Positions 526 through 64,000 are shown, counted from the first letter of the stretch. The stretch is DNA of 64,000 nucleotides from an uncultured Planctomycetales bacterium (GCA_964603585.1 CAZRVK010000003.1:195693-259692), one strand, 5' to 3'. Notes: a model not told the origin generated them from the letters alone. A program made the numbers and translations.

Positions 526-622
526 GTTAATAATGTTTACCCTGTGACAGTGTTTAAGGAGATCTGCCGGCGGGCGGGGTTTTCTCCGGTTCACTCGCAT
601 CAGGGCAAAATGAGGAGTTTAA

Positions 623-1879
623 ATGGCTTACGATATAAAAGATATCAAACTTTCGGGAAAAGGCGCTTTACGGATCGAATGGGCAAGCAACAATATGCCG
701 GTTTTAAGTTTGATCTCCAGGAGGTTTATTAAAGAAAAACCTTTGAAAGGATTGAAAGTCGCCGCCTGTTTGCATGTTACCACCGAAACAGGGGTTTTGA
801 TGTCAGTGTTAAAGGCCGGAGGAGCCGAGATTTATCTATGTGCTTCGAATCCTTTATCTACACAAGATGATGTTGCCGCTTCATTAGTCAAAGATCTCAA
901 GATCTCGGTATTTGCGATAAAAGGGGAAGACACAAAAACTTATTATCAGCATATCCAGTCGGTGCTTGCGACCAAACCGGATATTACTATGGATGATGGC
1001 GCTGACCTGGTAAGTGCTATACATCAAAGTGATGCGTCAGTATATCCTAATATTATCGGAGGTACAGAAGAAACCACGACCGGGGTAATAAGGCTAAGAG
1101 CATTGTCGGCTCAAGGAAAACTACGTTATCCGATCATTGCGGTTAATGACGCACAAACCAAGCATCTTTTTGATAACCGTTATGGGACCGGTCAATCAAC
1201 GATCGATGGAGTGATCCGCGCTACTAACCAGTTGATTGCCGGGTCAAATTTTGTGGTTTGTGGTTATGGCTGGTGCGGTAAAGGGGTAGCGATGCGCGCT
1301 AAAGGTATGGGGGCAAAAGTGATTGTAGTGGAGGTTGATCCTTTGCGCGGTTTAGAGGCGACTATGGATGGTTTTCAGGTCATGCCTATAAGCGAGGCGG
1401 CAAAAGCCGGAAATATCTTTGTCACGGTTACCGGGGATATCAATGTGATCCGGGGTGAGCATTTTCAGGTAATGCAGAATGGAGCGATTGTTTGTAATTC
1501 CGGGCATTTTAATGCGGAAATAGAGATCAAGGCCTTGGAGAAACTAAGTAAATCAAAGAAACAGATCCGGGATTTTACCGATGAATATATCCTTAAAGAC
1601 GGACGCAAGATCTATCTTTTAGGAGAAGGCAGATTGATCAACTTGGCGGCAGCCGAAGGGCATCCGGCGCAGGTAATGGATATGTCTTTTGCCAATCAGG
1701 CGTTATCTGCCGAATATATGCGCAAGCTGCATAAAAGCCTGGAGAAGAAGGTGTATAGTGTTCCCGAGGATATTGACCGCAATATTGCACATTTGAAACT
1801 CAAGTCCATGGGGATAAAAATAGACGTTTTGACGGAGGAACAAAAGAAATACCTCGATAGCTGGGAGATGGGGACATAA
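623..1879 (+). CDS. ahcY: adenosylhomocysteinase
   Basis: 418 aa with NAD-binding GYGWCGKG and the [10 protein letters not shown] signature. Lies next to metK, consistent with the methyl cycle. Confidence 0.93.
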
Positions 1880-1899
1880 TACAAAAGGGAGGAGCGAAA

Positions 1900-4011
1900 A
1901 TGTTTCAGAAAATATTTCTGGCATCTGTTTTGGCTTTTGTATTTGCTTTTGTATCGCCTGCGATGATCATTGCCGGAGGCGTCTTTAAGGAACGCCTGCA
2001 GCAGAAGATCAATGCTCCTTCAAAGAACATCCAGTATAATAACGATGTGATCTCATCTTCGCAATGCGAATATAATTATCAGTCCCCCATGGAAGAACAA
2101 GAGGGTAACCGCGTTGGTGAAGATAAGAAATATGATGCCAGGAATGAGTCCAGGAGGGAAAGAAGAAAAGATCTTGATCAGATCTCTCCTCGGCCGGTCC
2201 TTTCGGCTTTTGCAGTCTATAAAACTGATTATAAGGCGGAGATCGAAGAGGATGTGGTTACGGTTAAAGGCAATGTTTTGCTGGAAGTTTTTAATAAAGG
2301 CTGGACGCAAATACCTCTTATTAGAAGCGATGTCGGGCTGATCGATGTCAGTATCAACAGGGGTGCATCCTTTGTCACTATGCAGGCCGGAAAGTATTTT
2401 CTCATGATCGATAAACCTGGCAGGTATAATCTGGCGATCGAGTTCCTGATCAAGGCATCCCGGGAAAGAGAAAACGGTCCGGGTAATTTCAATTTTGAGA
2501 TCATTCCTGCGCCAATTTCCCAGTTTGAATTTACTATGCCGGAATCGGATGTCGAGATCTTTGTAGATCCGTCCATTAAGTTAGAGGTTTCCCGGGAGCC
2601 TAAGAAAACCGTTGCCTGGGCGGTAATGCCGAATACCTCGAATATCAATGTGCGTTGGTCCAAGGCGTTGCCAAAAGAAACCATTACCCCGGTTAAATTA
2701 GAGCCGAAGATCTACTTGGATACAGCTACTTACGCGACTATTGGTGAGGGGATAATCCGATGCCAGAGTACGCTGAATTATTCTGTTTTGCAATCGGAGG
2801 TTCCGAGTTTCAGGGTAGCCTTGCCTGATGATGTCAGTGTCCTGGATGTGCGAGGCGGTGATTTACGTGATTGGAAAGTATCTCATGACTCGGGAGTGCA
2901 GTACCTTGATGTTTATCTGAATTTCGGGGTAAAGGGTAATTATACCTTGAATTTGAGTTATGAACGCACTATTGGCGATGGTTCTTTAGTCGCTCAAATC
3001 CCTTGGGTTAAAGGTGTGGGGGTAGAAAGAGAAAAGGGTTATTTTGGTTTAGCGGCCGCAACTAATGTAGAGTTGGCAGTCAATAAGGTTGACCATGTCA
3101 GTCCCATTGATGTTAAAGAATTGCCCCAGGCGATCTGGAGCAGTTCCTCGAATCCGATATTGCTGGCTTTTAAATATTTGAATCATCCGTTCAGTATCGA
3201 TATTGATGTGACCCGGCATGAAGAAGTGCCGGTTTTAGTCGCGGCAATCGATTCTGCGGATTATGTTACTTTACAGACTGATGAAGGCAAAAATCTTACC
3301 AAAGCGATCTTTCAGGTAAGGAATAATGTTAAGCAATTTATACATCTTGCTTTACCTAAAGATGCGGTTTTATGGAGCGCTTTTGTCGCCGGTAAACCAG
3401 TTAAACCGGCAAAAGATAAGAATGGTGCGGTGCTTATTCCGCTGGAGAAATCACAGTCCAGTGGAGAGAGTTTGACCCAATTCCCGGTAGAGGTGGTTTA
3501 TCTGGACAAGATCAACAAGTTCGGTTTTCTCGGGGCAGGGAAACTTGTTTTACCGAATACCGATATCCCGGTCAGTATCTTGAACTGGTCAATTTATTTT
3601 CCGGGGGATTTCGTTTATTTTAATTTTGGCGGTGATCTCAAAGAAGCAAAGTATACCGGCCATCGCCAGGGTTCCTTTGGCCGTATGGTTTCGATGAAAG
3701 CGGAGATGGCAGATAAGATGCTTTCTTCCAATTATCAGGTCATGCCGCAACAGAGCCTGGAACAGAGCTCTAATAATTTAAGAGGTGTCTTACCGATAAA
3801 GATTGATATTCCGACGGAAGGAAGGCTTTGCCGTTTTTCTAAGATGTTGGTTACGGAAAAAGAATCCCCATCTTTGAGCTTTAACTTTATCTATACCTTT
3901 AAGCAGGTGCATGGATTATTCAGGCTGGGATTGTTTATTCTGGTGTTATTTGCTGGCATCAGGATATTTTGGGGAATATTCAGGAAAAAGGATTCGGTCA
4001 GGAATTCTTAA
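1900..4011 (+). CDS. hypothetical exported/membrane-anchored protein (703 aa)
   Basis: AGGAG RBS upstream, N-terminal signal-like hydrophobic segment and a C-terminal hydrophobic helix. No motif I recognise. Confidence 0.55.
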   Translation: MFQKIFLASVLAFVFAFVSPAMIIAGGVFKERLQQKINAPSKNIQYNNDVISSSQCEYNYQSPMEEQEGNRVGEDKKYDARNESRRERRKDLDQISPRPVLSAFAVYKTDYKAEIEEDVVTVKGNVLLEVFNKGWTQIPLIRSDVGLIDVSINRGASFVTMQAGKYFLMIDKPGRYNLAIEFLIKASRERENGPGNFNFEIIPAPISQFEFTMPESDVEIFVDPSIKLEVSREPKKTVAWAVMPNTSNINVRWSKALPKETITPVKLEPKIYLDTATYATIGEGIIRCQSTLNYSVLQSEVPSFRVALPDDVSVLDVRGGDLRDWKVSHDSGVQYLDVYLNFGVKGNYTLNLSYERTIGDGSLVAQIPWVKGVGVEREKGYFGLAAATNVELAVNKVDHVSPIDVKELPQAIWSSSSNPILLAFKYLNHPFSIDIDVTRHEEVPVLVAAIDSADYVTLQTDEGKNLTKAIFQVRNNVKQFIHLALPKDAVLWSAFVAGKPVKPAKDKNGAVLIPLEKSQSSGESLTQFPVEVVYLDKINKFGFLGAGKLVLPNTDIPVSILNWSIYFPGDFVYFNFGGDLKEAKYTGHRQGSFGRMVSMKAEMADKMLSSNYQVMPQQSLEQSSNNLRGVLPIKIDIPTEGRLCRFSKMLVTEKESPSLSFNFIYTFKQVHGLFRLGLFILVLFAGIRIFWGIFRKKDSVRNS

Positions 4012-4055
4012 ACCTTTGCGGGCTGATCAGTCCTGCGCTAATAAGAGGTGTGCCT

Positions 4056-5015
4056 ATGAAAAGGATTGCGGTTTTGACTACCGGCGGTGACGCCCCTGGA
4101 ATGAATGCGGCGATAAGAGGGGTGGTACGTACTGCTTTAAGCCATAAAGTAGAAGTGATAGGCGTATCCCGCGGCTGGTGGGGATTGATCCATGATGAAA
4201 TGAAGCCTATGGACCATCGTTCAGTTTCCGGGATTATCAATGAGGGCGGCACAATCTTAAAAACTGCCCGCTGCGTGGAGTTTCAGACTAAGGAAGGGCA
4301 GGAGCGCGCATTCGCTAATATACAAAAAAGCGGCATTGAAGGCATGGTAGTGATCGGAGGTAACGGAAGTTTTCGTGCTGCACATGAATTCTATTTAAAA
4401 TATAAGGTCCCCAGCATCGGTGTGCCGGCATCCATTGACAATGATGTCAACGGTATAGATGTGACTATCGGCTCCGATACCGCAATTAATACCGCATTAG
4501 GGGCTATCGATAATATACGCGATACCGCTACTTCCATGGAGAGGGTTTTTGTGGTAGAGGTTATGGGAAGGGAGTGCGGGTATATTGCCTTGCAGGTCGC
4601 CCTTGGCGGAGGATGTGAAGATGCGATTATCCCAGAGCGGCCATTTAATCTGGAGGAGACCTGCCATAGTATTGTAAACGGTAATTTACGGGGTAAGATC
4701 AGCTGGATTATCGTAGTTGCAGAAGGCGCTGGGCATGCCGAGCATATTGCACAGCAAATAACGGCACTTACTACTTTAGAAACGCGTGCAGTAGTTTTGG
4801 GGCATGTACAGAGAGGTGGGCGTCCTACGGCGTTTAGCCGGACGGTCGCTTTAAATATCAGCCAGGCGGCGGTTGAGTATCTTTTGCGCGGTCAGGCCGA
4901 TAAGGCCGTAGGGTTATGCTGTGGCCAGATTATCGCTGTAGATTTTGAAAAGGCGATCATGAAAAAGGATTATCCTTTTGATAAGTTATTGGGTGCGATC
5001 AAAACATTGACTTAA
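4056..5015 (+). CDS. pfkA: ATP-dependent 6-phosphofructokinase
   Basis: MKRIAVLTTGGDAPGMNAAIRGVVR N-terminus. ATG at 4056 is preceded by an AAGAGG RBS. The track ORF starting at 3969 is an upstream in-frame extension. Confidence 0.9.
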   Translation: MKRIAVLTTGGDAPGMNAAIRGVVRTALSHKVEVIGVSRGWWGLIHDEMKPMDHRSVSGIINEGGTILKTARCVEFQTKEGQERAFANIQKSGIEGMVVIGGNGSFRAAHEFYLKYKVPSIGVPASIDNDVNGIDVTIGSDTAINTALGAIDNIRDTATSMERVFVVEVMGRECGYIALQVALGGGCEDAIIPERPFNLEETCHSIVNGNLRGKISWIIVVAEGAGHAEHIAQQITALTTLETRAVVLGHVQRGGRPTAFSRTVALNISQAAVEYLLRGQADKAVGLCCGQIIAVDFEKAIMKKDYPFDKLLGAIKTLT

Positions 5016-5057
5016 CAGGATCAATTTTAAAAAACAAATAAGGGAGGAGTTCTTAAA

Positions 5058-6383
5058 ATGGGAAGAAAACCGCAGGATATTGAGAAAATAATTCTTGAGT
5101 TGATCACAAGCGATGACCTGGCACTTAAACGGACATTGGCCAAGAAAATACAGGCCATGGCTTATAAGAAAGGTATTTATCCTTCAAGTATCCATGAGCT
5201 TTATATGGCGATGGGACAAGGGTTAGTCAGCGGGTTTACTGTTCCGGCGATCAATTTAAGAAGTATGACCTATGACCTGGCCCGGGCGATGTTTAGGGTA
5301 GGCAAAAGGAATAATACCAGTGCGTTCATTTTTGAAATCGCAAAATCCGAAATGGGATATACCGATCAAATACCGGTTGAGTATTCTTCGGTAATATTGG
5401 CAGCGGCGCTTAAAGAGGATTATAAGGGGCCGGTATTCATTCAGGCCGATCATACCCAGGTTAACGCAAAGAAATATGCTTCTGATCCAGAGAAAGAGCT
5501 GGATGCCTTGAAGGCTTTGATCAAAGATGCCGTGGATGCGGGTTTTTATAATATCGATATCGATTCTTCAACTCTTGTTGACCTGTCTAAAGAAGAAGTG
5601 AAGAAACAGCAGTTCAATAATTATGATGTCTGCGCTAAATTGACGCAATTTATCCGTCAGATCCAGCCTAAGGGGATTGAGGTATCCGTAGGGGGGGAGA
5701 TTGGGGAGGTGGGGCATCAGAATTCGACCCCGGAAGATTTCCGTTCCTTTATGGAGGGGTTCAAAGAAAAATTGCGTAAAGGAAGGGTTGGGATCAGCAA
5801 GATCAGTATCCAGACTGGGACTTCCCATGGAGGAGTAGTTTTACCGGATGGAAGTGTGGCCCAGGTTAAGCTGGATTTTGATACCTTGAAAGTGATTTCA
5901 GAGATCGCGCGCAAAGAATATGGTTTGGCTGGCGCGGTTCAGCATGGCGCATCGACTTTGCCGGATGAGGCTTTCCATAAATTCCCGGAGGCAACTACCG
6001 CAGAAGTCCATCTGGCGACAGGTTTTCAAAACATGATGTATGACAGTAAGCATTTCCCCCAGGACCTTAAGAACAAGATCTACGAGTGGTTAAAGGTGAA
6101 TGCTGCTTCAGAAAGAAAAGAGGGGGAGAGCGACGAGCAATTCTTTTATAAGGCGCGGAAAAAGGCTCTTGGCCCATTTAAAAAAGAGATCATGGGGTTG
6201 CCTTCTTCTGTGCGCGATGCGATTGCCGCAGAAATCGAGAATAAGTTCGAGTTCTTATTCAAACAATTGAATAATGTGAATAATAAAGATTCGGTGGATA
6301 AATATGTGACCTTGAAACGTGTGATTGTGCGTAAGCCTAAAGATGATTCTGGCGTTGTGCACGACGGAGAAGGCGCGGATTAG
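5058..6383 (+). CDS. class II (metal-dependent) fructose/ketose-bisphosphate aldolase family protein, long form
   Basis: 441 aa with an FTVPAINLR-type motif and an HGG-containing segment resembling class II aldolases. Sits directly downstream of pfkA. Family assignment is from motif memory, not a search. Confidence 0.55.
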   Translation: MGRKPQDIEKIILELITSDDLALKRTLAKKIQAMAYKKGIYPSSIHELYMAMGQGLVSGFTVPAINLRSMTYDLARAMFRVGKRNNTSAFIFEIAKSEMGYTDQIPVEYSSVILAAALKEDYKGPVFIQADHTQVNAKKYASDPEKELDALKALIKDAVDAGFYNIDIDSSTLVDLSKEEVKKQQFNNYDVCAKLTQFIRQIQPKGIEVSVGGEIGEVGHQNSTPEDFRSFMEGFKEKLRKGRVGISKISIQTGTSHGGVVLPDGSVAQVKLDFDTLKVISEIARKEYGLAGAVQHGASTLPDEAFHKFPEATTAEVHLATGFQNMMYDSKHFPQDLKNKIYEWLKVNAASERKEGESDEQFFYKARKKALGPFKKEIMGLPSSVRDAIAAEIENKFEFLFKQLNNVNNKDSVDKYVTLKRVIVRKPKDDSGVVHDGEGAD

Positions 6384-6393
6384 TCAATAGAGT

Positions 6394-6463
6394 GGGCTGA
6401 TGGCTCATTGCTCATAGCTCATATTAGTTAATAGTATCTCTTTTACTATGAGCCATGAGCTAA
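6394..6463. repeat. intergenic imperfect palindrome built from GCTCAT/ATGAGC units (element A)
   Basis: gctgatggctcattgctcatagctcat ... atgagccatgagcta. Shares the GCTGATGGCTCA core with element B at 9947-10014. Confidence 0.6.
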
Positions 6464-6484
6464 CGTGTTAATTAAGGAGATGAT

Positions 6485-8137
6485 ATGCGTTCTGATCAGA
6501 TCAAAAAAGGTGTAGAAAGAATTCCCCACCGGGCATTGTTGCATGCAACGGGTTTGGGCAGAAAAGACCTGGATAAACCTTTTATTGGGGTGGCGACTTC
6601 TTTTACTGATCTTATCCCGGGCCATGTGGGTATGCGTGACCTGGAAAGGTTTATCGAGCGTGGTATTTGTTCGGCCGGAGGGGTGCCGTTTTTCTTCGGG
6701 GTGCCGGGGATTTGCGACGGGATTGCGATGGGGCATTTAGGCATGTGCTATCCTATGGCTTTAAGGGAGATCGTGGCTGATACCGTAGAAACTGTTGTGC
6801 AAGCGCATCAGTTGGATGGTATAGTCTGCCTTACTAATTGCGATAAGATCACCCCGGGCATGCTTATGGCAGTAGCGCGGTTAAATATACCGGCGATCAT
6901 TGTGACCGCCGGCCCTATGATCTCCGGACATTTTAAGAAAAGGAAACTGGCCTTTGTGCATGATACTTATGAAGCTGTGGCTATGGCAAAAAAAGGCGAG
7001 ATTTCTTCGGCGGACCTTGTTTGCATCGAGCAGGAAGCTTGCCCTGGCGCCGGGTCATGCCAGGGATTATATACTGCCAATACAATGGCCTGCCTTACCG
7101 AGACTTTAGGTATGTCATTGACCGGATGCGGCACGGGACTGGCTAATTCTGCAAAAAAACGTCGGATTGCCCAGGCCAGCGGTGAACGGATCGTAGAATT
7201 AGTGCGCCGGGATATCAAGCCTTTAGATATAATTACCAAGAAATCCCTGGAAAACGCCATTGTGGTTGATATGGCTTTAGGCGGTTCCAGTAATACGGTT
7301 TTGCATCTTATGGCAATCGCACATGAAGCAGGTATTGATTTTGATCTAAAGACTTTTGATAAGGTGGGGTTAACTACTCCGCATATCACTTCTTTGGAAC
7401 CGGCCGGCACGCATTTTATGGAAGACCTTGAGTATGCCGGAGGGATACCTGCGGTGCTGAAACGGCTAAAGTCAAAGTTGAATGATAATATTACTGTAAG
7501 CGGAGATAGAATATTTTCTATAGCCGATAAAGCCGAGATTTATGATGAAGATGTGATCCGCCCATTTGAGAATGCTTACCATAAACAGGGAGGATTGGCG
7601 ATTTTATTTGGCAATCTTGCTCCAGATGGCGCGATCGTAAAACAGGCGGCGGTGAATCCTAAAATGATGAAGTTTACCGGCCGTGCAGTTGTTTTTAATC
7701 AGGAAGAAGAAGCGATGCAGGCAATCCTGAACGGTAAAATCAAAGGTGGGGAAGTGATCATTATCCGGTATGAAGGCCCGAGCGGCGGGCCGGGGATGCG
7801 CGAAATGTTAGCTCCTACCTCGGCGATAGTCGGGATGGGGCTTGCTGATTCCGTGGCGCTTATTACCGACGGTAGGTTCTCTGGAGGGACTAAAGGGCCA
7901 TGTATTGGGCATGTTTCCCCCGAAGCTACTAAAGGCGGACCGATCGCGGTCTTAAAGGATGGGGATACGATTACAATTGATATTGCCAAAAGAAAGATCG
8001 AAGTGGATCTGACGGCGGCAGAAATAAATAAAAGGTTTAAAACCTGGAAACCGATTGAGCCAAAGATCAAAAAGGGGTATTTAGCCAGGTATTCCAGGCT
8101 GGTTAGTTCGGCGGATAAAGGAGCAGTGCTAAGTTAA
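6485..8137 (+). CDS. ilvD: dihydroxy-acid dehydratase
   Basis: 550 aa with the CDGIAMGH motif and typical IlvD/EDD family N-terminus. Confidence 0.93.
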
Positions 8138-8150
8138 GCAGCTTTGGGTT

Positions 8151-8253
8151 GCAAAGTCACAAGTCGCAAAGTCACAATGTTATCTTGAAACATGAAACTT
8201 GAAACCCGTACATAGTTCCAGGTTTCAACCTTGTGACGTTGTGACATTGTGAC
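8151..8253. promoter_or_regulatory. large inverted repeat with heptamer-repeat arms (GTCACAA x3 / TTGTGAC x3) between ilvD and ilvB; possible attenuator, terminator or operator array
   Basis: Left arm gcaaagtcacaagtcgcaaagtcacaatg and right arm ttgtgacgttgtgacattgtgac are reverse complements. The ~50-nt centre carries GAAAC x3. Confidence 0.5.
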
Positions 8254-8279
8254 CCGGTAACTCTAACCTATATACTACG

Positions 8280-9944
8280 ATGAATGGCGCGCAAATATTA
8301 CTTGAAAGTTTAAAACGTGAAGGAGTGACAGTTTTATTCGGTTACCCCGGCGGGCAGGTTTTGCCTATTTTCGATAAGCTTTATGATTCAGATATAAAAC
8401 TCATTCTTCCCCGGCATGAACAGGGAGCGGTGCATGCCGCGGATGGATATGCCCGTGCAACCGGTAAGGTGGGGGTTTGCCTTGCAACCAGCGGCCCGGG
8501 CGCTACTAATTTAGTGACGGGTATAGCTAACGCTTATATGGACTCGATCCCTTTGGTAGCGGTCACCGGTCAAGTTAAGTCTTTCTTGATCGGTAATGAT
8601 GCGTTCCAGGAAGCAGATGTTACCGGGATCACACGCCCGATAACCAAACATAATTTCCTGGTTAAAGATGCAAAGGATCTTGCCCGGACTATTCGTGAGG
8701 CGTTTTATATCGCATCCAGCGGAAGGCCGGGACCGGTGGTGGTGGATATTCCAAGCGATATCCAGCTGCAGGAGACAGATTTTATCTGGCCGGATACCGT
8801 AGATATCCGCAGCTATAAACCTACGCTGTTTGGGCATCCTGGGCAGATCAAGAAAGCCGCAAAGTTGATCTCACAATCAAAGAAACCTATCCTTTATGTG
8901 GGAGGCGGGGTTATCACTTCCGGGGCGTATTTGGAGTTAAGGAAACTTGCGGAGAAGATCCAGGCTCCGGTAACAACCACTTTGATGGGGATGGGCGCTT
9001 TCCCGGATACGCATAAACTTTCTTTAGGGATGCTGGGGATGCATGGGACGGCTTATGCAAACCACGCTGTTACCGGCGCAGACCTTATCATTGCTATCGG
9101 CGCGCGTTTTGACGACCGGGTCACCGGCAGGCTTGATGCTTTTGCTCCGCTTTCAAAAGTCATTCATATTGATATCGATCCGGCCAGTATCAGCAAGAAC
9201 TTCCGCGTGGATGTGCCAATTGTCGGCGATGCAAAGAATATTCTGGGGGAATTGCTTGAGCAGCTCGAGAAAATCCCGGATACGTCGGAGTGGATCAAGG
9301 TCGTGGAAGACTTCAAGAAAAAGCATCCGATGAAGTATAAGAATGAAGGGAAGCTTAAACCGCAGTATATTATTGAACAGATAAATGATATTACTAAAGG
9401 CGATGCTATAATTGTCACTGAAGTAGGCCAGCATCAGATGTGGGCTGCGCAGTGGTATAAATATATCCATCCGCGTACATTTATTTCAAGCGGCGGGCTT
9501 GGCACTATGGGATTTGGTTTCCCGGCGGCAATGGGGGCTAAGGTGGGTTGCCCGGATAAAACAGTGTTTGATATCGCTGGTGACGGCTCGATCCAGATGA
9601 ATATCCAGGAATTGGCTACTTGCGTGTGCAATAAGATAAATGTTAAGGTGATGATTCTGAATAACGGTTATCTTGGTATGGTCAGGCAGTGGCAGGAGCT
9701 TTTTTATAAACGGCGCTATTCATATACTTGTATAACCGGCCCTGATTTCGTGAAACTCGCAGAAAGTTATGGGGCCGTGGGGATCCGCGTTACTAAAAAA
9801 GAGGAAGTAAGGCCGGCTATAGAGCGGGCGATCAAGACCGATAATACGGTTTTTGTTGATTTTGTGATCGAACAAGAGGAGAATGTTTTCCCGATGGTCC
9901 CTGCGGGGGAAGCGATCAACAAGATGATTGAGGGGTTGGCGTAA
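8280..9944 (+). CDS. ilvB: acetolactate synthase large subunit
   Basis: 554 aa TPP enzyme with GYPGG N-terminus and GGLGTMGFGFPAAMGA TPP-binding motif. Confidence 0.93.
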   Translation: MNGAQILLESLKREGVTVLFGYPGGQVLPIFDKLYDSDIKLILPRHEQGAVHAADGYARATGKVGVCLATSGPGATNLVTGIANAYMDSIPLVAVTGQVKSFLIGNDAFQEADVTGITRPITKHNFLVKDAKDLARTIREAFYIASSGRPGPVVVDIPSDIQLQETDFIWPDTVDIRSYKPTLFGHPGQIKKAAKLISQSKKPILYVGGGVITSGAYLELRKLAEKIQAPVTTTLMGMGAFPDTHKLSLGMLGMHGTAYANHAVTGADLIIAIGARFDDRVTGRLDAFAPLSKVIHIDIDPASISKNFRVDVPIVGDAKNILGELLEQLEKIPDTSEWIKVVEDFKKKHPMKYKNEGKLKPQYIIEQINDITKGDAIIVTEVGQHQMWAAQWYKYIHPRTFISSGGLGTMGFGFPAAMGAKVGCPDKTVFDIAGDGSIQMNIQELATCVCNKINVKVMILNNGYLGMVRQWQELFYKRRYSYTCITGPDFVKLAESYGAVGIRVTKKEEVRPAIERAIKTDNTVFVDFVIEQEENVFPMVPAGEAINKMIEGLA

Positions 9945-9946
9945 TT

Positions 9947-10014
9947 AGCTCATGGCTGATGGCTCATGGTAAAAGCAAAAGTAATTATGAGCAATGAGCC
10001 AAAAGCCATGAACC
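9947..10014. repeat. intergenic imperfect palindrome built from GCTCATG/CATGAGC units (element B)
   Basis: agctcatggctgatggctcatgg ... atgagcaatgagccaaaagccatgaacc. Paralogous to element A. Confidence 0.6.
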
Positions 10015-10035
10015 AAAACTACATAAAAGGATGAT

Positions 10036-10509
10036 ATGAAACATACGATATCGGTGCTAGTGGAGAACAAGTTTGGAGTGCTGGCAAGGGTAGCCGGATT
10101 ATTCAGCGCCCGGGGATATAATATTACATCTTTAGCGGTTAGCGAGACTTTGGATCCTTCGATATCTTATATGACCATTGTTGTGGATGCCAAAGATGAA
10201 AAGATACTCGAGCAGATCAAAAAGCAGTTAAATAAACTGATCGATGTTATTTCGGTAACTGATTTTACCAAGAAAACCCATGTGGAGCGTGAACTTGTCC
10301 TGGTTAAAGTTAAATGCCCGGTAAAAGATAAGGAGAAACTGGAAACCCTGGTAAATAAATATTGGGCCAAGAATATTCAGTATAAAGGAAATGTTGCGAT
10401 TATCGAGGCGATCGGAGAAGAAGATCAGATCTGTTTGCTTCTTGAAGGATTGGATAAGTTCGGAGTTCTGGAATTGATCCGGACCGGTAAGATAGTTATG
10501 GAACAATAA
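10036..10509 (+). CDS. ilvN: acetolactate synthase small (regulatory) subunit
   Basis: 157 aa with ACT-domain N-terminus [26 protein letters not shown]. Confidence 0.9.
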
Positions 10510-10528
10510 TCTTAAAAAGGAGAGGGAA

Positions 10529-11521
10529 ATGATAAAGGTTTACTATGATAAAGACGCTGATCTTAATCTGCTAAAAGGTAAAACCATCGCTATTATTGGA
10601 TACGGCATTCAAGGAAGAGGCCAATCGTTATGCCTAAGGGATTCCGGGTGCAACGTGGTTGTTTCGGAAATGCCAGGGACGGTTAATTATGAACAGGCCA
10701 AAAAAGACGGATTTACACCGGTAAGTGCTTCGGCAGCAGCACAACAAGCTGATATTATCCAAATACTTACTCAAGACCATGTGCAGGCTAAAGTTTATAA
10801 AGAGTCGATTGAGCCGCAGCTTAAAGCCGGAAAGGCGCTTTGTTTTTCCCATGGGTTCAATATTCACTTTAAACAGATCGTTCCTCCCAATGATGTAGAT
10901 GTATTTATGGTGGCACCAAAAGGCCCCGGGGCATTGGTAAGGAAGATGTATGAAGAAGGTAAAGGCGTGCCGTCTTTGGTTGCCGTTTATCATGATGCCA
11001 GCGGCAAGGCTTTGCAGACCGCTTTGGCTTATGCAAAGGGCTTAAAGGCTACTACCGCAGGTGTTATCGAAACTAATTTTAAAGAGGAAACTGAAACCGA
11101 CCTTTTTGGCGAACAGGCGGTGCTTTGCGGGGGGGTTAGTGAATTGATCCTTGCCGGATTCGATACTTTGGTTAGCGCTGGCTATCAGCCGGAGATCGCC
11201 TATTTTGAGGTTTTGCATGAATTAAAATTGATCACCGATCTTATCCAGGAAAGAGGTATCTCCGGAATGCGTCGAGGTGTTTCCAACACTGCCTGTTATG
11301 GCGATATTACCCGCGGCCCGCGCCTGATTACTGAAGAGACACGTAAGGAGATGGAGAAGATCTTGAAAGAGATCCAGTCCGGCCAGTTTGCTAAGGAGTG
11401 GATCCAGGAAAATGAAAAAGGACGCCCTAACTTTAACAGTTTATTAAAGAAGGGTGATGAGCATTTGATCGAGAAGGTGGGGAAGCAGTTGAGAGAGATG
11501 ATGCCTTGGATGAAAAAGTAG
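10529..11521 (+). CDS. ilvC: ketol-acid reductoisomerase
   Basis: 330 aa with the [10 protein letters not shown] Rossmann motif, class I KARI. Confidence 0.92.
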
Positions 11522-13047
11522 AGCTAAGAGTTAAGAATAAGATGGATAAACTTATAATTTTCGATACTACATTAAGAGATGGTGAGCAGGCGCCGGGAGC
11601 AAGTTTGAATCCGGCGGAAAAACTTGAGATCGCCCATGCCCTTTCCGATATGGGCGTGGATGTGATAGAGGCGGGTTTTCCTGTTTCCAGTAAAGGCGAC
11701 CTTGATTCCGTCCAGAAGATCTCCCGTGCGGTAAAAGGGCCGGTTATTTGCGCTCTTTCCCGGGCGATCAAAGCAGATATCGATGCTTCGGCGGAAGCGC
11801 TGAAATATGCCAGGCGCGGGCGTATCCATGTTTTCTTGGCGACTTCCAAGATCCATATGCAGTATAAACTTAAAAAGGCCGAAGAGGAGATATTGAAGCT
11901 GGCAGTGGAAAGTGTAAAATATGCCAGAAAGTTCTGTCCGGATGTAGAATTTTCTCCGGAGGATGCTTCGCGCAGTGAGCGGGATTTTATTTTCCGGGTG
12001 CTCGAGAGTGTGATCGATGCCGGGGCAACTACGGTAAATATCCCGGATACGGTTGGTTATACCCAGCCGGAAGAATATGGGCGGTTGATTAGTGCAATCA
12101 GGGAGAGGGTGCCTAATATCCAAAAAGCGGTGATTTCCACTCATTGCCACAATGATCTTGGTTTGGCGGTAGCTAATTCTTTGGAGGCGATCAAAAACGG
12201 GGCGCGCCAGGTGGAGTGTACAGTTAACGGTATCGGCGAACGTGCAGGGAATGCCTCGATGGAAGAGATCGTAATGAATATTATGACCCGGCAGGATGTT
12301 TTTAAGGGGGTACGGAGCAATATCGTTACAAACCATATTTATAAGGTTTCGCGCTTGGTGAGTAAACTCACCGGATTTGCGGTTGCTCCCAATAAGGCGA
12401 TCGTCGGTGGTAACGCGTTCCGTCATGAATCCGGGATCCATCAGGACGGGGTTTTGAAGGAGCGTTGTACTTATGAGATCATCCGGCCCGAGGATGTGGG
12501 GTTTACCGGCACCGGTATTGTTTTGGGTAAACATTCAGGACGGCATGCGTTAAATGACCGGCTTAAGGATTTGGGGTTTGTTTTGAGCCCTGATCAGCTG
12601 GATAAGATCAGCCAGAGGTTTAAGTCTTTGGCGGATAAGAAAAAACATATTTTTGATGATGACCTTGTCTCGATCGTAGAAGATGAGACCAAAGTGATCA
12701 AGGTTGTCTGGAAATTCGAGGGGTTTGAGGTTACCTCCGGCACATATACCAAGCCGGAGGCAAAAGTCAGCTTAAAATATAAAAACAAGGTTTATACTGC
12801 TAAATCTTCCGGTGATGGCCCGGTAGATGCCTGTTTTAAGGCAATTGATAAGATTACCGGGACTAAAGGTGAATTGCAGGATTATCGTATCGAAGCAGTT
12901 ACCGGCGGTAAAGACGCGCTTGGCGAGGTAGGCCTTAAGTTGAAGGCCCGCGGTAAATCCGTCGTTGCCCGCGCCTCCAGTACCGATATCATCGAGTCAT
13001 CTGTCAGGGCGTATATAAACGCACTCAATAAGATCGAGAGTTTATAG
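11506..13047 (+). CDS. leuA: 2-isopropylmalate synthase (alternative start at ATG 11542)
   Basis: LRDGEQ and HCHNDLG motifs plus a C-terminal LeuA dimerisation/regulatory domain. Confidence 0.9.
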
Positions 13048-56658: not shown

Positions 56659-57378
56659 ATGCGCTATATATTCGGTCCTTTAAAGTCCAGAAGACTGGGA
56701 AATTCTTTAGGTATTAACCTTACTCCTTATAAGGTTTGTACATTCGATTGTATTTACTGCCAGTTAGGCAAAACCACCCAAAAAACACAGACACGCCGGG
56801 AATATTTCCCCGCCTCGGAGATCTTAGAGGAGATAAGGAACTGGTTTCAGCATAATCCTGATCAGGCGAGTACCCTGCAATATATTACATTTTCCGGTTC
56901 AGGCGAGCCGACCCTCAATGTTAGGATCGGAGAGCTGATTTCCGGAATAAGAAAGATCACTAATGTGCCGGTTGCAGTGATAACCAATGCTTCGTTGTTA
57001 AATGATCCCTTGGTGCGTAGTGCCTTATTGACGGCGGATTTGATCATACCTTCTTTAGATGCAGTAGTCCCCGAGGTTTTCCAGGAGATAGACCAGCCGC
57101 AAGAGGGAGTAAGAATAGAAGATATCATTAACGGTTTGATCAGTTTCCGCAAGGAGTTCAGAGGCCAGATCTGGCTGGAAGTGATGCTGGTAAGCGGGAT
57201 AAATGATGACCTGCGTTATATTAAGAAGCTCAAAGAGGTAATAGACCAGATTGATCCGGACAAGATCCAGATCAATTCTCCTGTGCGGGTCGGCACCGAG
57301 GCGGGTATTTCTTCTCCGGATAGGCAAAAACTTGAGAAGATAAAAGAGATCCTCGGGGAAAACTGTGAGATCGTTTGA
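56659..57378 (+). CDS. radical SAM protein (core domain only, no SPASM extension)
   Basis: CTFDCIYC CxxxCxxC cluster motif near the N-terminus. 239 aa. Confidence 0.75.
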   Translation: MRYIFGPLKSRRLGNSLGINLTPYKVCTFDCIYCQLGKTTQKTQTRREYFPASEILEEIRNWFQHNPDQASTLQYITFSGSGEPTLNVRIGELISGIRKITNVPVAVITNASLLNDPLVRSALLTADLIIPSLDAVVPEVFQEIDQPQEGVRIEDIINGLISFRKEFRGQIWLEVMLVSGINDDLRYIKKLKEVIDQIDPDKIQINSPVRVGTEAGISSPDRQKLEKIKEILGENCEIV

Positions 57379-60491: not shown

Positions 60492-60672
60492 TTTCCTGCT
60501 CCTTTCTAAGAATACGCCTTAAAGACATTATACCGCTGATAGTTTAAATAGCAATAATTTAGCTTACTATAATTTCTGACAGGGACGATAGTGGAATAAA
60601 GTCAGAAAAAAACAGAATCACCCCATTTACATTTATAGTCCCGAATATTATTATAATAAAGTAATAAAGGGT

Positions 60673-60695
60673 AATAAAGGGGACGTTTCTATTTT
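60673..60695 (+). repeat. conserved 23-bp cassette motif, copy 1 (AATAAAGGGGACGTTTCTATTTT), preceded by a partial copy at 60663-60671
   Basis: Exact match to the family consensus. Confidence 0.8.
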
Positions 60696-60793
60696 TTTGT
60701 TGCTGGGATAGAGTATTAGATATAGCACTTATAATTTGCTATTTAGGATCGGTAGTTAGTATGTTATTTAGCCTGTTGAATACTAAATGATGT

Positions 60794-61036
60794 TTGAAAG
60801 TGGAGGTGGATGTGACGAAAGGAATAAAGTCATTTTTGAAGAAAAAGGATGGCAATAGGCAGAAAAGACAATGGAGCGATCCCATACTGATAAGGTTAGT
60901 GCAATTGAAGCATGATGAACTGATACTTGCTGGATGCAAGTATGACGCTTTGTGGGTGGATCCATCTACAAGCAACCCGGGTTGTATGATTGGCGGAATA
61001 TGCGGTTCTCCTTGCAGCACTCTTTCGGCTTCATAA
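60794..61036 (+). CDS. Cys-rich peptide family member P1 (start uncertain: TTG 60794 or GTG 60812)
   Basis: ...RQWSDPILIRLVQLKHDELILAGCKY...GCMIGGICGSPCSTLSAS shares the W-x-x-P-x-LI-x-LV, CK and terminal SAS pattern with P2-P7. Confidence 0.45.
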   Translation: MKVEVDVTKGIKSFLKKKDGNRQKRQWSDPILIRLVQLKHDELILAGCKYDALWVDPSTSNPGCMIGGICGSPCSTLSAS

Positions 61037-61147
61037 ACAGAGAACGAGGTGGCAATTATATCCTGGGGGCAGGCATTTTCAGCCCAGATTTCTTATTTAT
61101 TTCTAAATGTTTTGACAAGGTATCTTTATAAAGTATAATAATTGTTA

Positions 61148-61170
61148 AATAAAGGGGACGTTTCTATTTT
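61148..61170 (+). repeat. conserved 23-bp cassette motif, copy 2
   Basis: Exact AATAAAGGGGACGTTTCTATTTT, 47 nt upstream of the PepSY-like gene. Confidence 0.8.
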
Positions 61171-61216
61171 CTTATCCAAATTTAGCTGATTTTAATTTAT
61201 AACAAAGGAGGAGAGG

Positions 61217-61570
61217 ATGAGGTATTTAGCAGTAACAGGCGTGATCGCGGCCTTTTTATTCTCAATGGTATCTTTTGGGTATGCCCAGGATAAGAGTAAG
61301 GACGAAGTTATTTCTATCGCTATGGAAGCTTTAAAAGGGCAGAATATCCAATTAGAAGATGTGAGTGTTATTTATGATGAAGGCGGCAAGCTTTGGAATG
61401 AAAAAGTCGGTTATTTAGCAGAGGAAGATAAATCGCCAAACCATGGTATTTTAAGAAAAGGATTCTTGAAAAATTATAAAATAGTCTTATTCGATTTTAA
61501 AGAGCCGCTCCCGGATATTTGGGTATTTATCGATAAAGATACCGGAGAAGTCCTGGAAGTCTATAGGTAA
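61217..61570 (+). CDS. secreted PepSY-like small protein (117 aa)
   Basis: GGAGGAG RBS and signal peptide. Two motifs resembling PepSY (VISIAMEALKGQNIQLEDVSVIYDEGG ... FIDKDTGEVLEV). Confidence 0.45.
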   Translation: MRYLAVTGVIAAFLFSMVSFGYAQDKSKDEVISIAMEALKGQNIQLEDVSVIYDEGGKLWNEKVGYLAEEDKSPNHGILRKGFLKNYKIVLFDFKEPLPDIWVFIDKDTGEVLEVYR

Positions 61571-61591
61571 TAAAGGGTGGCGTTCCTGTTC
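61569..61591 (+). repeat. degenerate copy of cassette motif (AATAAAGGGTGGCGTTCCTGTT), copy 3
   Basis: 14/23 positions conserved. Overlaps the PepSY stop and precedes P2. Confidence 0.5.
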
Positions 61592-61621
61592 CTTTAAAAC
61601 AGGGAAGGGCCTGTGAAGATT

Positions 61622-61810
61622 ATGGGCTATAAGATAAGAAAACAGTGGAAGCAGCCTAATTTTATAGTATTAGTACGAATAAAAAAGCAGGAGGCAGTTC
61701 TTGCGGTCTGCAAGCTTTATTCGAACAGTGATGGTCCGGAGAACGTTTCATTTTCTGGATGTGGAGAGGCTAACCCATTTGATTTTTGCTATGATGACGC
61801 CCTGTCATGA
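61622..61810 (+). CDS. Cys-rich peptide family member P2 (alt. GTG start 61613)
   Basis: MGYKIRKQWKQPNFIVLVRIKKQEAVLAVCKLYSNSDGPENVSFSGCGEANPFDFCYDDALS. Confidence 0.6.
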   Translation: MGYKIRKQWKQPNFIVLVRIKKQEAVLAVCKLYSNSDGPENVSFSGCGEANPFDFCYDDALS

Positions 61811-61876
61811 CCAGTGATAATTATCGTTTATTTTTGCATACATATGGACGGGATGTTTCGAGTAAAAAGGCAGGGC

Positions 61877-61899
61877 AATAAAGGGGACGTTTCTATTTT
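61877..61899 (+). repeat. conserved 23-bp cassette motif, copy 4
   Basis: Exact consensus. Ends 7 nt before ATG 61906. Confidence 0.8.
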
Positions 61900-61905
61900 T
61901 TAGAG

Positions 61906-62112
61906 ATGGAATATGGCATGAATTATAAAATAAAAAAGAGCTGGAAGCAGCCTGCGCTGATACGGTTGGTAAGAGAAAGTAAGGAGGAGCGGGTACTTGT
62001 AACCTGCAAACTAGGAGTTGGTGTTGCAGTAGTTGGTCCTGATGTGTTGTTTGATTCGTGTATGCTGGGTGCAGAGTGTGATTTTAATTGTGACTCGTTT
62101 GCGGCATCTTAG
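61906..62112 (+). CDS. Cys-rich peptide family member P3 (alt. start ATG 61918 giving MNYKIKK...)
   Basis: M(EYG)MNYKIKKSWKQPALIRLVRESKEERVLVTCKLGVGVAVVGPDVLFDSCMLGAECDFNCDSFAAS. Confidence 0.6.
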   Translation: MEYGMNYKIKKSWKQPALIRLVRESKEERVLVTCKLGVGVAVVGPDVLFDSCMLGAECDFNCDSFAAS

Positions 62113-62154
62113 GGAGAAATGAACCAGAACTTAGGAACTTGAGTTTACCGTGTA

Positions 62155-62220
62155 GCAATAAAGGGGACGTTTCTATTTTCTTAGCGATCAATAAAGGGGA
62201 CGTTTCTATTTTCTTAGCGA
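62155..62220 (+). repeat. tandem duplication of a 33-bp unit carrying the cassette motif (copies 5 and 6 at 62157-62179 and 62190-62212)
   Basis: caataaaggggacgtttctattttcttagcgat appears twice consecutively. Confidence 0.85.
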
Positions 62221-62232
62221 TGAAAATACGAT

Positions 62233-62427
62233 ATGGATTATAAAATAAAAAAACACTGGAAGCAGCCGCACTTTATCGTGCTGATAAAGAATAAATTTGA
62301 GGAAAGGGTCCTTGTAGTTTGCAAGGTTAATCCTGGAGGCATAAGTAGCCCTGATGCTACGTTAAGTGAATGCAACCTTGATATAGATGGTTGTAACCCT
62401 GTTTGTTCAGTTATATCTGCGTCATGA
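62233..62427 (+). CDS. Cys-rich peptide family member P4
   Basis: MDYKIKKHWKQPHFIVLIKNKFEERVLVVCKVNPGGISSPDATLSECNLDIDGCNPVCSVISAS. Confidence 0.65.
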   Translation: MDYKIKKHWKQPHFIVLIKNKFEERVLVVCKVNPGGISSPDATLSECNLDIDGCNPVCSVISAS

Positions 62428-62446
62428 TTTCAGTAATAAAGGGGAT

Positions 62447-62469
62447 AATAAAGGGTACGTTTCTATTTT
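62447..62469 (+). repeat. cassette motif copy 7 (AATAAAGGGTACGTTTCTATTTT), with partial copy at 62435-62444
   Basis: One mismatch to consensus. Followed by cttagcgatg as in the tandem copies. Confidence 0.8.
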
Positions 62470-62489
62470 CTTAGCGATGAAAACACAAT

Positions 62490-62678
62490 ATGGATTATAA
62501 AATAAAAAAACACTGGAAGCAGCCGCATTTTATTATATTAGTTAGGAAATATAGGCCAGAGAGGGTGCTAGTAATTTGCAAGACGAAAAGTACGGGGCAG
62601 TATCCGGGAGTGGTGGAGGATTCATGCCAATCTTTGGATGTTTCCTGCGATAACTGTGAGATAACAGGATCTTCTTAG
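62490..62678 (+). CDS. Cys-rich peptide family member P5
   Basis: MDYKIKKHWKQPHFIILVRKYRPERVLVICKTKSTGQYPGVVEDSCQSLDVSCDNCEITGSS. Confidence 0.65.
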   Translation: MDYKIKKHWKQPHFIILVRKYRPERVLVICKTKSTGQYPGVVEDSCQSLDVSCDNCEITGSS

Positions 62679-62688
62679 TCTATCAAGT

Positions 62689-62711
62689 AATAAAGGGAAC
62701 GTTTCTATTTT
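62689..62711 (+). repeat. cassette motif copy 8 (AATAAAGGGAACGTTTCTATTTT)
   Basis: One G->A change relative to consensus. Confidence 0.8.
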
Positions 62712-62762
62712 TAGCCACACTTAGTTTTTCTCTCTTAGGATTAAATTACGATTAAACTAAAT

Positions 62763-62933
62763 ATGAATCATAAACTAAAGAAGCAGTGGAAGCAGCCTGC
62801 GCTGGTAAGGTTGGTAAGAGGAGATAGTAAAGAGATGGCACTATCGGGGTGTAAATCTGTTGACTTGACTGGGCCGATTAATTTCGCTCACGCCTGCGAA
62901 TGTCTGCTTTGTTCCGAATCAGTTATCTCATAA
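62763..62933 (+). CDS. Cys-rich peptide family member P6 (56 aa; below ORF-track threshold)
   Basis: MNHKLKKQWKQPALVRLVRGDSKEMALSGCKSVDLTGPINFAHACECLLCSESVIS, translated by hand from ATG 62763 to TAA 62931-62933. Confidence 0.55.
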   Translation: MNHKLKKQWKQPALVRLVRGDSKEMALSGCKSVDLTGPINFAHACECLLCSESVIS

Positions 62934-62954
62934 CTCTTAGCTTTGGAATAAAGG

Positions 62955-62977
62955 AATAAAGGGAACGTTTCTATTTT
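62955..62977 (+). repeat. cassette motif copy 9 (AATAAAGGGAACGTTTCTATTTT), with partial copy at 62947-62954
   Basis: Precedes the Cys-rich 65-aa gene by 77 nt. Confidence 0.8.
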
Positions 62978-63053
62978 TTTTAGCCGTAATATTAGGTGGT
63001 AGTTGAGTTTTTTAGCAGATGTCTGGCGAAATCAGGGGGAAGAGGAAGTAATA

Positions 63054-63251
63054 ATGGATTGCTCTAACAAGAGAATAAATAATTCGATCTGTAATTGCAG
63101 TTATCCGGGATGCCCCAGGCATGGTATTTGTTGCGAGTGCCTTACTTATCATCGGTCGAACAACGAATTGCCAGCATGCTATTTTGATAAAGAGTCCGAG
63201 CGGACCTATGACCGGTCTGTAGGATATTTTATAAAAACCAAGCTGCCTTAG
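63054..63251 (+). CDS. small Cys-rich protein (65 aa) distinct from the P family: C-x-C-x4-C-x4-CC-x-C, YHR motif
   Basis: ATG 63054 after a GGGGGAAGAGGAAG RBS. MDCSNKRINNSICNCSYPGCPRHGICCECLTYHRSNNELPACYFDKESERTYDRSVGYFIKTKLP. The track ORF from TTG 63003 is an extension. Confidence 0.5.
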   Translation: MDCSNKRINNSICNCSYPGCPRHGICCECLTYHRSNNELPACYFDKESERTYDRSVGYFIKTKLP

Positions 63252-63407
63252 AAAAGAACAAAAGAAGAACAAGACGTGTTGTATAACATGAATCTTATCA
63301 AATAGTTAGGAAACAAATATTTGGCAGTCTATCGTTATAATTGTTTTGTAACTGTTGGGAATAAAAGAGATATGCAACATGTCTTACGCCTTTTACGCCA
63401 TTAGATT

Positions 63408-63611
63408 ATGAACAAGTTATATGTGGATCATAAACTAAATAAGCCGTGGAAGCAGCCTGCTCTAATAAGGTTGGTAAGACATGTTGTGCAAGAGAGAGTG
63501 CTTGTGGTGTGTAAAGGTGTTGGGCCGGTGTTAAGTAGTGGCCCGAACAGCTCTTTTGAAGGATGCGATAATGCATGTGAAGGGCCGTGCAACACTATGG
63601 CTGTCTCTTGA
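63408..63611 (+). CDS. Cys-rich peptide family member P7
   Basis: MNKLYVDHKLNKPWKQPALIRLVRHVVQERVLVVCKGVGPVLSSGPNSSFEGCDNACEGPCNTMAVS. Confidence 0.6.
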   Translation: MNKLYVDHKLNKPWKQPALIRLVRHVVQERVLVVCKGVGPVLSSGPNSSFEGCDNACEGPCNTMAVS

Positions 63612-63646
63612 TCTTTAGTTCGTGTTCTTTTGAGATTAGATTCTTT

Positions 63647-63669
63647 GATAAAGGGACCGGTTATATTTT
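63647..63669 (+). repeat. degenerate cassette motif copy (GATAAAGGGACCGGTTATATTTT)
   Basis: 16/23 conserved. Followed 44 nt later by a 24-aa ORF (63713-63787, MVFSSKAALEGKSFLYSVNKICYY) that does not belong to the family. Confidence 0.45.
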
Positions 63670-63832
63670 TTACGTGATATTAGAGGTTAGTCACTTTTGG
63701 GATAGGTTTTTAATGGTTTTCAGCTCTAAAGCTGCCTTAGAAGGTAAATCTTTCCTTTACAGCGTCAATAAAATCTGCTATTATTAACTTTCCCTTTTTA
63801 CGATATTAAGCTATAATTGTAATAGTATTTTC

Positions 63833-63875
63833 GGGCCATTAGCTCAATTGGCAGAGCAGGACACTCTTAATGTTC
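63833..63875 (+). pseudogene. 5' fragment of a tRNA-Lys(CUU)-like gene (acceptor 5' strand, D-arm, anticodon arm; no T-arm or 3' acceptor within window)
   Basis: GGGCCAT TA GCTC AATTGGCA GAGC A GGACA CTCTTAA TGTTC, then unrelated sequence. No ATGGCCC 3' acceptor complement before the window end at 64000. Confidence 0.45.
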
Positions 63876-64000
63876 CATATCCCGCCACTATACCGTTGTA
63901 AATAATAGACTTACGATTTAAAGTGTGAATAAAATTGTGAATAGAATCAGAAATGCAGTTTATCTACGGATCCTTTTAAGTGGTCTTTAGATAGGTGAGA

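Follow-up and report, generated by a model that had tools for sequence, protein, structure and literature searches.

Seven small genes in tandem

The DNA examined here is a 64,000-nucleotide stretch from an uncultured Planctomycetales bacterium (GCA_964603585.1, CAZRVK010000003.1:195693-259692), hereafter called the window, which near its end carries a tandem array of small genes for Cys-rich peptides. A first-pass annotation, made from the sequence alone, had described seven paralogues with a conserved N-terminal block (the leader) and a variable tail (the core), and had suggested that they encode precursors of ribosomally synthesized peptides that are modified post-translationally (RiPPs). 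On the + strand between 60.8 and 63.6 kb we find exactly seven paralogous open reading frames (ORFs) of 56–74 aa, at the locations given in that annotation:

60815–61036, + strand: P1, 73–74 aa, with the most divergent leader (WSDP); alternative TTG start at 60794
61613–61810, + strand: P2, 62–65 aa, from GTG 61613 or ATG 61622; only two core Cys
61918–62112, + strand: P3, 64 aa; identical to the database protein P0001
62233–62427, + strand: P4, 64 aa, family member
62490–62678, + strand: P5, 62 aa, family member
62763–62933, + strand: P6, 56 aa, with the shortest core, C-x-C-x2-C-x5-S
63423–63611, + strand: P7, 62 aa if begun at GTG 63423, 67 aa if begun at ATG 63408

A profile of the family, searched against the six-frame translation of all 64 kb, matches only P1–P7 (E 3e-16 to 6e-22), and the next-best match in the window is at E 0.56. 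The locations of the seven genes thus stand as first described, and the starts of three of them are revised. P1 likely begins at GTG 60815, which has a GGAGG 6 nt upstream and at which the database call P0003 (74 aa) also begins; P2 begins at one of the two codons listed, the database call P0002 being the 65-aa form; and the likely start of P7 is GTG 63423, which lines up with the N-terminus of the family.

In an alignment of the seven peptides the invariant positions are W, P, L, E, L, C-K, P, C, C, and the terminal S. The mean pairwise identity is 54% in the 27-aa leader block versus 26% in the cores, in agreement with the division into leader and core that had been proposed. Within the leader block the synonymous differences are saturated (pS 0.73), whereas the non-synonymous differences are constrained (pN 0.30), which argues that the copies are old and under purifying selection, and are not chance ORFs. 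We take the array to be an old, diverged, tandemly duplicated set of probable precursors.

The tails are divergent and rich in Cys, as first described, and they are nevertheless not freely hypervariable, because they are built on a fixed Cys scaffold with a Cys-x5-Ser/Thr end. The pattern C-x(1-6)-C-x(2-3)-C-x5-S is found in six of the seven, P2 being without the middle Cys, and in all seven there are five residues between the last Cys and the C-terminal Ser. Two smaller features of the earlier description do not hold. The linker was said to contain Gly-Pro in every member, and only its Pro is invariant; the tails were said to end in Ala-Ser or Ser-Ser, and the endings are AS (three times), SS, LS, IS, and VS, so that only the final Ser is common to all.

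A large family with a fixed C-terminal end

Scans of the seven window peptides against Pfam and NCBIfam gave nothing meaningful, and the precomputed annotation of a newer Pfam release is likewise empty. A word-indexed homology search returned six proteins only, three of which are the window's own, and a search for related loci by close alignment returned no loci. An exhaustive HMMER search of 1.84 billion representative proteins (clusters at 50% identity) with the family profile, on the other hand, found 2,524 representatives at E ≤ 1e-3, 67 of them at E ≤ 1e-10, nearly all of 55–80 aa. We regard this large group, which has no Pfam or NCBIfam model, as an unnamed RiPP precursor family. The searchable literature, queried by system, taxa, motif, and gene names, contains no description of the peptide family or of the gene cassette described below.

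The family consensus is xKKxWxxPxLIVLVRxxxEExVLxxCKxxxxxxGPxxxxxxCxxxxxxCxxCxxxxxS. Of the 306 members in which a leader can be recognised, 78% carry three Cys beyond the C-K and 290 end in Ser or Thr; exactly six residues lie beyond the last Cys in 271 of the 301 members that have a core Cys. The leader is roughly K-K-x-W-x-x-P-x-L-I-x-L-V-R-x4-E-x-V-L-x2, and is predicted to be of the type bound by a small PqqD-type RiPP recognition element (RRE) protein. The core consists of the C-K, about ten residues with a Pro, usually three Cys, and the stretch from the last Cys through five residues to the C-terminal Ser/Thr. Models of lasso-peptide leaders match weakly (PadeA in 18 of 122 members, rhodolasso in 13 of 122), a resemblance that would fit recognition by a PqqD-type RRE.

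Radical-SAM cassettes beside the relatives

With a degenerate DNA pattern of the leader we retrieved 109 loci from species-representative genomes, which together contain 155 family peptides. They belong to Desulfobacterota, Omnitrophota, Aminicenantes, Chloroflexota, Acidobacteriota, Actinomycetota, Chlorobiaceae, Methanothrix, and Methanomicrobiales, and include one cultured strain, Desulfosarcina variabilis str. Montpellier (L020), in which the genes form a compact cluster. The neighbouring ORFs were clustered, and six recurrent families were identified by Pfam and NCBIfam. Radical-SAM/SPASM enzymes (SAM, S-adenosyl-L-methionine) are present at 55 of the 109 loci (104 proteins, and commonly two or three to a locus), S24/S26-type serine peptidases at 29, ATP-binding cassette (ABC) exporters at 17, PqqD at 17, NTP_transf_5 nucleotidyltransferases at 15, and SAM methyltransferases at 5; a ScmC/HprK-like domain is found at 35. 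Gene orders recur, e.g., PqqD, peptidase, radical-SAM, peptide, and ABC in D. variabilis. The further recurrent neighbours at the 109 loci are unrelated housekeeping or regulatory genes, with no lasso cyclase and no B2 protease among them.

The window peptides are 40–50% identical to members that lie within radical-SAM clusters (e.g., L020, L085, and L035). The proposal of a multi-copy RiPP precursor family is supported by these neighbourhoods, as homologues lie beside radical-SAM/SPASM, PqqD, peptidase, and ABC exporter genes in about half of the loci, and so is the suggested resemblance of the leader to those recognized by the RRE/PqqD-type domains of radical-SAM maturases. One metagenome-assembled genome has 13 peptides over six loci, only two of which include a radical-SAM gene. 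It is common in the family for a genome to have many precursors, spread across loci of which some include maturases and others do not, and about half of the loci are remote from any maturase. A remote array served in trans is the most economical reading of the window, and we consider it likely that the seven ORFs are functional precursors of this family, processed in trans by a cassette encoded elsewhere.

The neighbouring radical-SAM enzymes reach no curated maturase cutoff, the best partial matches being to StsB, NirJ2, AhbD, ScmE/F, and the mycofactocin maturase. Since they score comparably against the models for the mycofactocin and PqqE maturases, the peptides might instead be substrates for a cofactor, as PqqA and the mycofactocin precursor are, or they might be small Cys4 metal-binding regulators that lie beside radical-SAM genes by chance, the four conserved Cys (that of C-K plus three) being able to hold a metal. 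We give this very little credence. Cofactor precursors are single-copy and conserved, whereas here the cores are diverged and a genome may hold up to 13 copies, and the cassettes contain a leader-type peptidase and an ABC exporter.

Two further contigs come from related lineages. One (L191), a metagenome contig that has the lineage-specific 23-nt repeat of the window, carries a full cassette. The other, the related Omnitrophota contig L197 (Ga0129287_10000038, 2134–12391), has a complete cassette directly upstream of metK-ahcY-pfk-fba, which comprises an uncalled precursor, a radical-SAM–ScmC protein, a radical-SAM enzyme, PqqD, a 326-aa protein, another radical-SAM enzyme, and an ABC gene. 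We note that this three-radical-SAM cassette adjoins the genes for SAM synthetase and S-adenosylhomocysteine hydrolase, which pairs them with SAM-consuming enzymes.

A kinase-like domain fused to radical-SAM enzymes

The ScmC/HprK-like domain is often fused to a radical-SAM enzyme, and it is also found by itself, in a protein of about 300 aa. In the fused enzymes, of about 650 aa, it forms a C-terminal extension with a conserved GHSEAGKS P-loop. Ten copies compared with NCBIfam matched ScmC (10 of 10; best 47.6 bits, cutoff 125), HprK_rel_B (10 of 10), and HPr(Ser) kinase/phosphatase (9 of 10), all below the cutoffs; in the precomputed annotation of the newer Pfam release the domain is given as PF27840 ScmC. 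An AlphaFold model of the domain has a mean predicted local distance difference test score (pLDDT) of 72, with values of 80–94 across most of the P-loop half. All of the model's top 50 matches in the PDB are phosphoenolpyruvate (PEP) carboxykinases or HPr kinases/phosphatases (E 3e-6 to 1.7e-4), the two families that have this kinase fold. The predicted structure thus places the domain in a kinase-like fold.

In the lasso precursors of paeninodin and pseudomycoidin, the C-terminal Ser is a phosphorylation target of HprK-family kinases, and an uncharacterised nucleotidyltransferase then puts a hexose onto that C-terminal Ser phosphate (PMC6993621). The combination, in the present family, of an invariant C-terminal Ser/Thr, a kinase-like domain, and a nucleotidyltransferase suggests, by analogy, a similar C-terminal modification.

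The window and its surroundings

The LpxC-FabZ protein encoded in the window has its named relatives in Candidatus Omnitrophica (66–69% identity), and the array genome probably belongs to Omnitrophota. Several observations weigh against processing of the window peptides by a cassette elsewhere in this genome. In agreement with the first-pass annotation, which saw no modifying enzyme in the window, its 64 kb contain no homologue of the cassette proteins, and the 5.3 kb upstream, from the same organism, contain no maturase homologue. None of the best 120 of 1,415 homologues of the radical-SAM–ScmC protein of L191 is on the known contigs of this genome (280,782 bp and 117,360 bp). Only about 390 bp follow P7 in the window, which is compatible with an adjacent, a distant, or an absent cassette. 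Matches to the named families of maturases and precursors all fall far short of the curated cutoffs. Finally, no family peptide or associated enzyme has been characterised within the searchable literature, so the type of cross-link and the phosphorylation rest on analogy.

With so little sequence beyond P7, the array could be the first part of a contiguous cluster, in which radical-SAM, PqqD, peptidase, and ABC genes just past position 64000 would process the peptides in cis. Such an order has precedents, as the peptides directly precede the enzymes in many loci, and arrays of 5–9 precursors adjoin radical-SAM genes in three of them (L032, L051, and L081). In array clusters, however, a peptide gene is usually found no more than a few hundred bases from the enzymes, and beyond P7 there is a tRNA-like fragment but no large ORF begins; we therefore consider a cluster in cis unlikely. 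The fragment itself (63833–63884, just past the array) corresponds to the 5′ half of a tRNA whose anticodon loop reads CTT (Lys); it scores 24.9 bits in Rfam against a gathering score of 29, and ARAGORN makes no call. It could be the mark of an old integration or rearrangement site.

The lack of a maturase in about 65 kb also fits orphan peptides, whose cassette was lost or never present and which would now be unmodified disulfide or metal-binding peptides, or decaying relics. Compatible with loss, the relative's cassette stands beside metK/ahcY, and other genes occupy that position here; furthermore, P2 is short of one Cys and the leader of P1 is divergent. Against this, all seven frames are intact and all family-invariant residues are retained despite saturated synonymous sites, the peptides are without a signal peptide, and the constraint on an RRE-type leader and a C-x5-S tail fits only if recognition and tailoring machinery exists. 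Two further family members, moreover, are found at a second locus from the same two sequencing runs (SRR15237810 and SRR15237811). Taken together, we judge the orphan explanation to be decidedly unlikely, and we retain the reading of functional precursors that are processed in trans.

The second locus (L005; L006, 543–1719, Logan SRR15237810_410610), which may or may not belong to the same genome, holds an uncalled 62-aa ORF and P0006 as its two family members. After these come two small, secreted proteins rich in Cys (103 aa and 75 aa), the second of which has repeats of C-x-C and CC. The locus has no maturase within 3.6 kb and no copy of the 23-nt element.

Two other places for a maturase were considered and rejected. 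The sole protein of the window with a CxxxCxxC motif is a 239-aa radical-SAM protein (56659–57378). It is a weak generic match to the maturase cluster, reaches no peptide-maturase model and no curated family cutoff, and follows lpxD-lpxC/fabZ-lpxA-lpxI-CBM48 both in the window and in a relative without a peptide array at that place (L198); it is probably unrelated to the peptides. Because the window begins within metK, and the cassette of L197 precedes metK, a cassette just before coordinate 1 was also considered; the contig L199, from the same organism, has NTP_transferase, PtsI, HPr, and CofD at that place. Positions 1–6041 of the window are syntenic with L197 from metK on, with an extra 703-aa ORF (1900–4011) between ahcY and pfk.

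Interspersed genes and a repeat at gene 3′ ends

The array also contains two genes outside the family and a short repeat:

60673–62977, + strand: 23-nt element AATAAAGGG[GA/AA/TA]CGTTTCTATTTT, eight copies, starting at 60673, 61148, 61877, 62157, 62190, 62447, 62689, and 62955
61217–61570, + strand: 117-aa gene, interspersed; N-terminus resembling a signal peptide, weak match to PepSY (E 7.8e-4, below cutoff)
63054–63251, + strand: small, Cys-rich DUF6485 gene, interspersed (PF20095, E 5.8e-7, 30.4 bits versus a cutoff of 24)

Neither the PepSY-like nor the DUF6485 gene has homologues near family peptides in other loci, and both were rejected as parts of the system.

The element AATAAAGGGGACGTTTCTATTTT occurs in eight copies with at most one mismatch, all within 60673–62977, where none would be expected by chance; degenerate copies lie near 61569 and 63647, the former beginning at the stop codon of the PepSY-like gene. 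One copy stands after every peptide gene and also after the PepSY-like gene. The first-pass annotation had regarded the element as a shared cis-element of the peptide genes, and this does not survive comparison with other sequences. The exact motif AATAAAGGGNNCGTTTCTATTTT is present in 81 metagenome stretches (L116–L195 among the loci), only one of which encodes a family peptide, and the genes that precede it there are of all kinds. Its position is beyond the stop codon of a gene on the same strand in 37 cases versus 7, at a median distance of 25 nt and sometimes overlapping the TAA. Where the arrangement of genes discriminates, 11 cases are convergent and one is divergent, a bias that favours a 3′ element over a promoter.

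A role as promoter or operator of the peptide genes was accordingly rejected, given the 81 stretches, the single peptide, and the 3′ placement. A sigma-54-like reading made by eye was rejected as well, the −12 GC being missing, and so was that of an intrinsic terminator in the window, where single copies fold no better than shuffled sequence. Only the inverted pairs, in which the element often occurs elsewhere, fold better than that, into perfect hairpins of 25–30 bp (−33 to −42 kcal/mol). We take the element to be a lineage-wide extragenic repeat like the repetitive extragenic palindromic (REP)/REPIN sequences, or alternatively a bidirectional-terminator-like element; the 23-nt repeat marks the 3′ ends of genes across the whole lineage.

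P4 and P5 form a mosaic (62190–62533): over the stretch that runs from the 23-nt element up to and including codon 15 their identity is about 95%, and in the cores their similarity drops to near-random. This pattern suggests a recent duplication or gene conversion confined to the 5′ part, in which the repeat may have been carried along or used. A perfect 33-nt tandem duplication of element plus flank is located at 62157–62221, and two public short-read assemblies of the same organism (L003 and L004) stop exactly there, after P3; the array is thus fragile to assemble. P4–P7 are missing from a collection of 15 billion proteins, and there is no record of P7, with either of its alternative starts, or of the DUF6485 product.

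Relation to known peptide systems

The closest known system is SynChlorMet (SCM), a bioinformatically defined cassette for which we found curated models (ScmA TIGR04252, ScmC TIGR04249, ScmD TIGR04248, ScmE TIGR04250, ScmF TIGR04251, and PF27840) but no characterised pathway. Like the present family it combines a short precursor, a PqqD-type protein, two radical-SAM/SPASM enzymes, and an ScmC (HprK-like) protein, and it has a similar spread over Desulfobacterota, Chlorobiaceae, and methanogens. ScmC is the best NCBIfam match of the kinase-like domain, and ScmE/ScmF are among the better matches of the radical-SAM enzymes. However, the scores stay well below the cutoffs (ScmC 47.6 bits versus 125, ScmE/F 74–89 versus 400, and ScmD 25.5 versus 100), the ScmA model is matched by one of 122 peptides at E 0.004, and no window peptide matches TIGR04252. 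The family's cassettes also go beyond SynChlorMet in the fusion of ScmC with radical-SAM, the common third radical-SAM enzyme, the S24/S26 peptidase, and the NTP_transf_5 protein, none of these enzymes being in the window. We therefore regard the family's system as a sister of the SCM cassette with extra parts.

Sactipeptides and ranthipeptides (AlbA, StsB, and PapB) have in common with the family Cys-rich cores and radical-SAM/SPASM enzymes with an RRE, and StsB is the top match of one neighbouring enzyme. They differ in score (StsB 99.6 bits versus a cutoff of 625, PapB 55 versus 340, and AlbA 53 versus 850), and in the up to three radical-SAM enzymes, the fixed C-x5-Ser end, and the kinase-like domain found here.

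The lasso systems of paeninodin (PadeA/PadeK) and pseudomycoidin (PsmA/PsmK/PsmN) share the K-K-x-W-x-x-P-x-[LI] leader type and the invariant C-terminal Ser, together with an HprK-family kinase, an uncharacterised nucleotidyltransferase, PqqD/RRE, and an ABC exporter. A lasso cyclase (Asn-synthetase-like) and a B2 protease, in contrast, are not among the recurrent neighbours of the present family, which has radical-SAM/SPASM enzymes instead and a Cys-rich core. Tested against the precursor model NF033524, the peptides reach about 13 bits at best (cutoff 27), with sub-threshold matches in 18 of 122 that cover only the first 9–11 leader positions.

The prochlorosins, in which many procA genes are served by one ProcM, resemble the array in their conserved leader, diverged cores, and genes that in some cases are distant from the enzyme locus. 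They are different in leader, which is unrelated (no NHLP/Nif11 match), and in predicted chemistry, and the window has no LanM-like gene.

A proposed pathway and its implications

The window itself supplies precursors only, and the enzymology proposed for them draws on other genomes and on analogy. In the pathway we envisage, PqqD would dock the leader, and radical-SAM/SPASM enzymes would cross-link the Cys, thioether bonds like those of sactipeptides and ranthipeptides being the likeliest product. The kinase-like domain would phosphorylate the invariant C-terminal Ser/Thr, in the manner of the paeninodin and pseudomycoidin kinases, and the nucleotidyltransferase might decorate the C-terminal phosphate. 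The peptidase would then cut off the leader and the ABC transporter would export the product. As with the prochlorosins, one enzyme set could in this way give several products.

Going further than precursor function and processing in trans, we put forward tentatively, as a possibility short of probable, that the array is a seven-member library of an undescribed RiPP class. The class would occur widely among uncultured anaerobes (Omnitrophota, Desulfobacterota, Chloroflexota, Aminicenantes, Methanothrix, and others). Up to three radical-SAM/SPASM enzymes would cross-link its peptides, and an HprK-like domain fused to radical-SAM would phosphorylate them, possibly with further decoration, at the invariant C-terminal Ser.

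Radical-SAM/SPASM RiPPs and SCM-like cassettes are known, and the RiPP reading of this array can now be linked to a specific, widespread, uncharacterised radical-SAM cassette. The precursor family spans about 2,500 clusters at 50% identity, and its strict Cys-x5-Ser end predicts the site of modification. Three radical-SAM/SPASM enzymes, an HPr-kinase-like domain, and a nucleotidyltransferase would bring together chemistry not yet seen in one peptide, an enzyme combination that, if the proposal is true, is without report for any characterised RiPP. The Omnitrophota are uncultured, ultra-small bacteria that are often predatory or parasitic. A diversified library of exported peptides, if true, would bear on how they interact with their hosts or prey.

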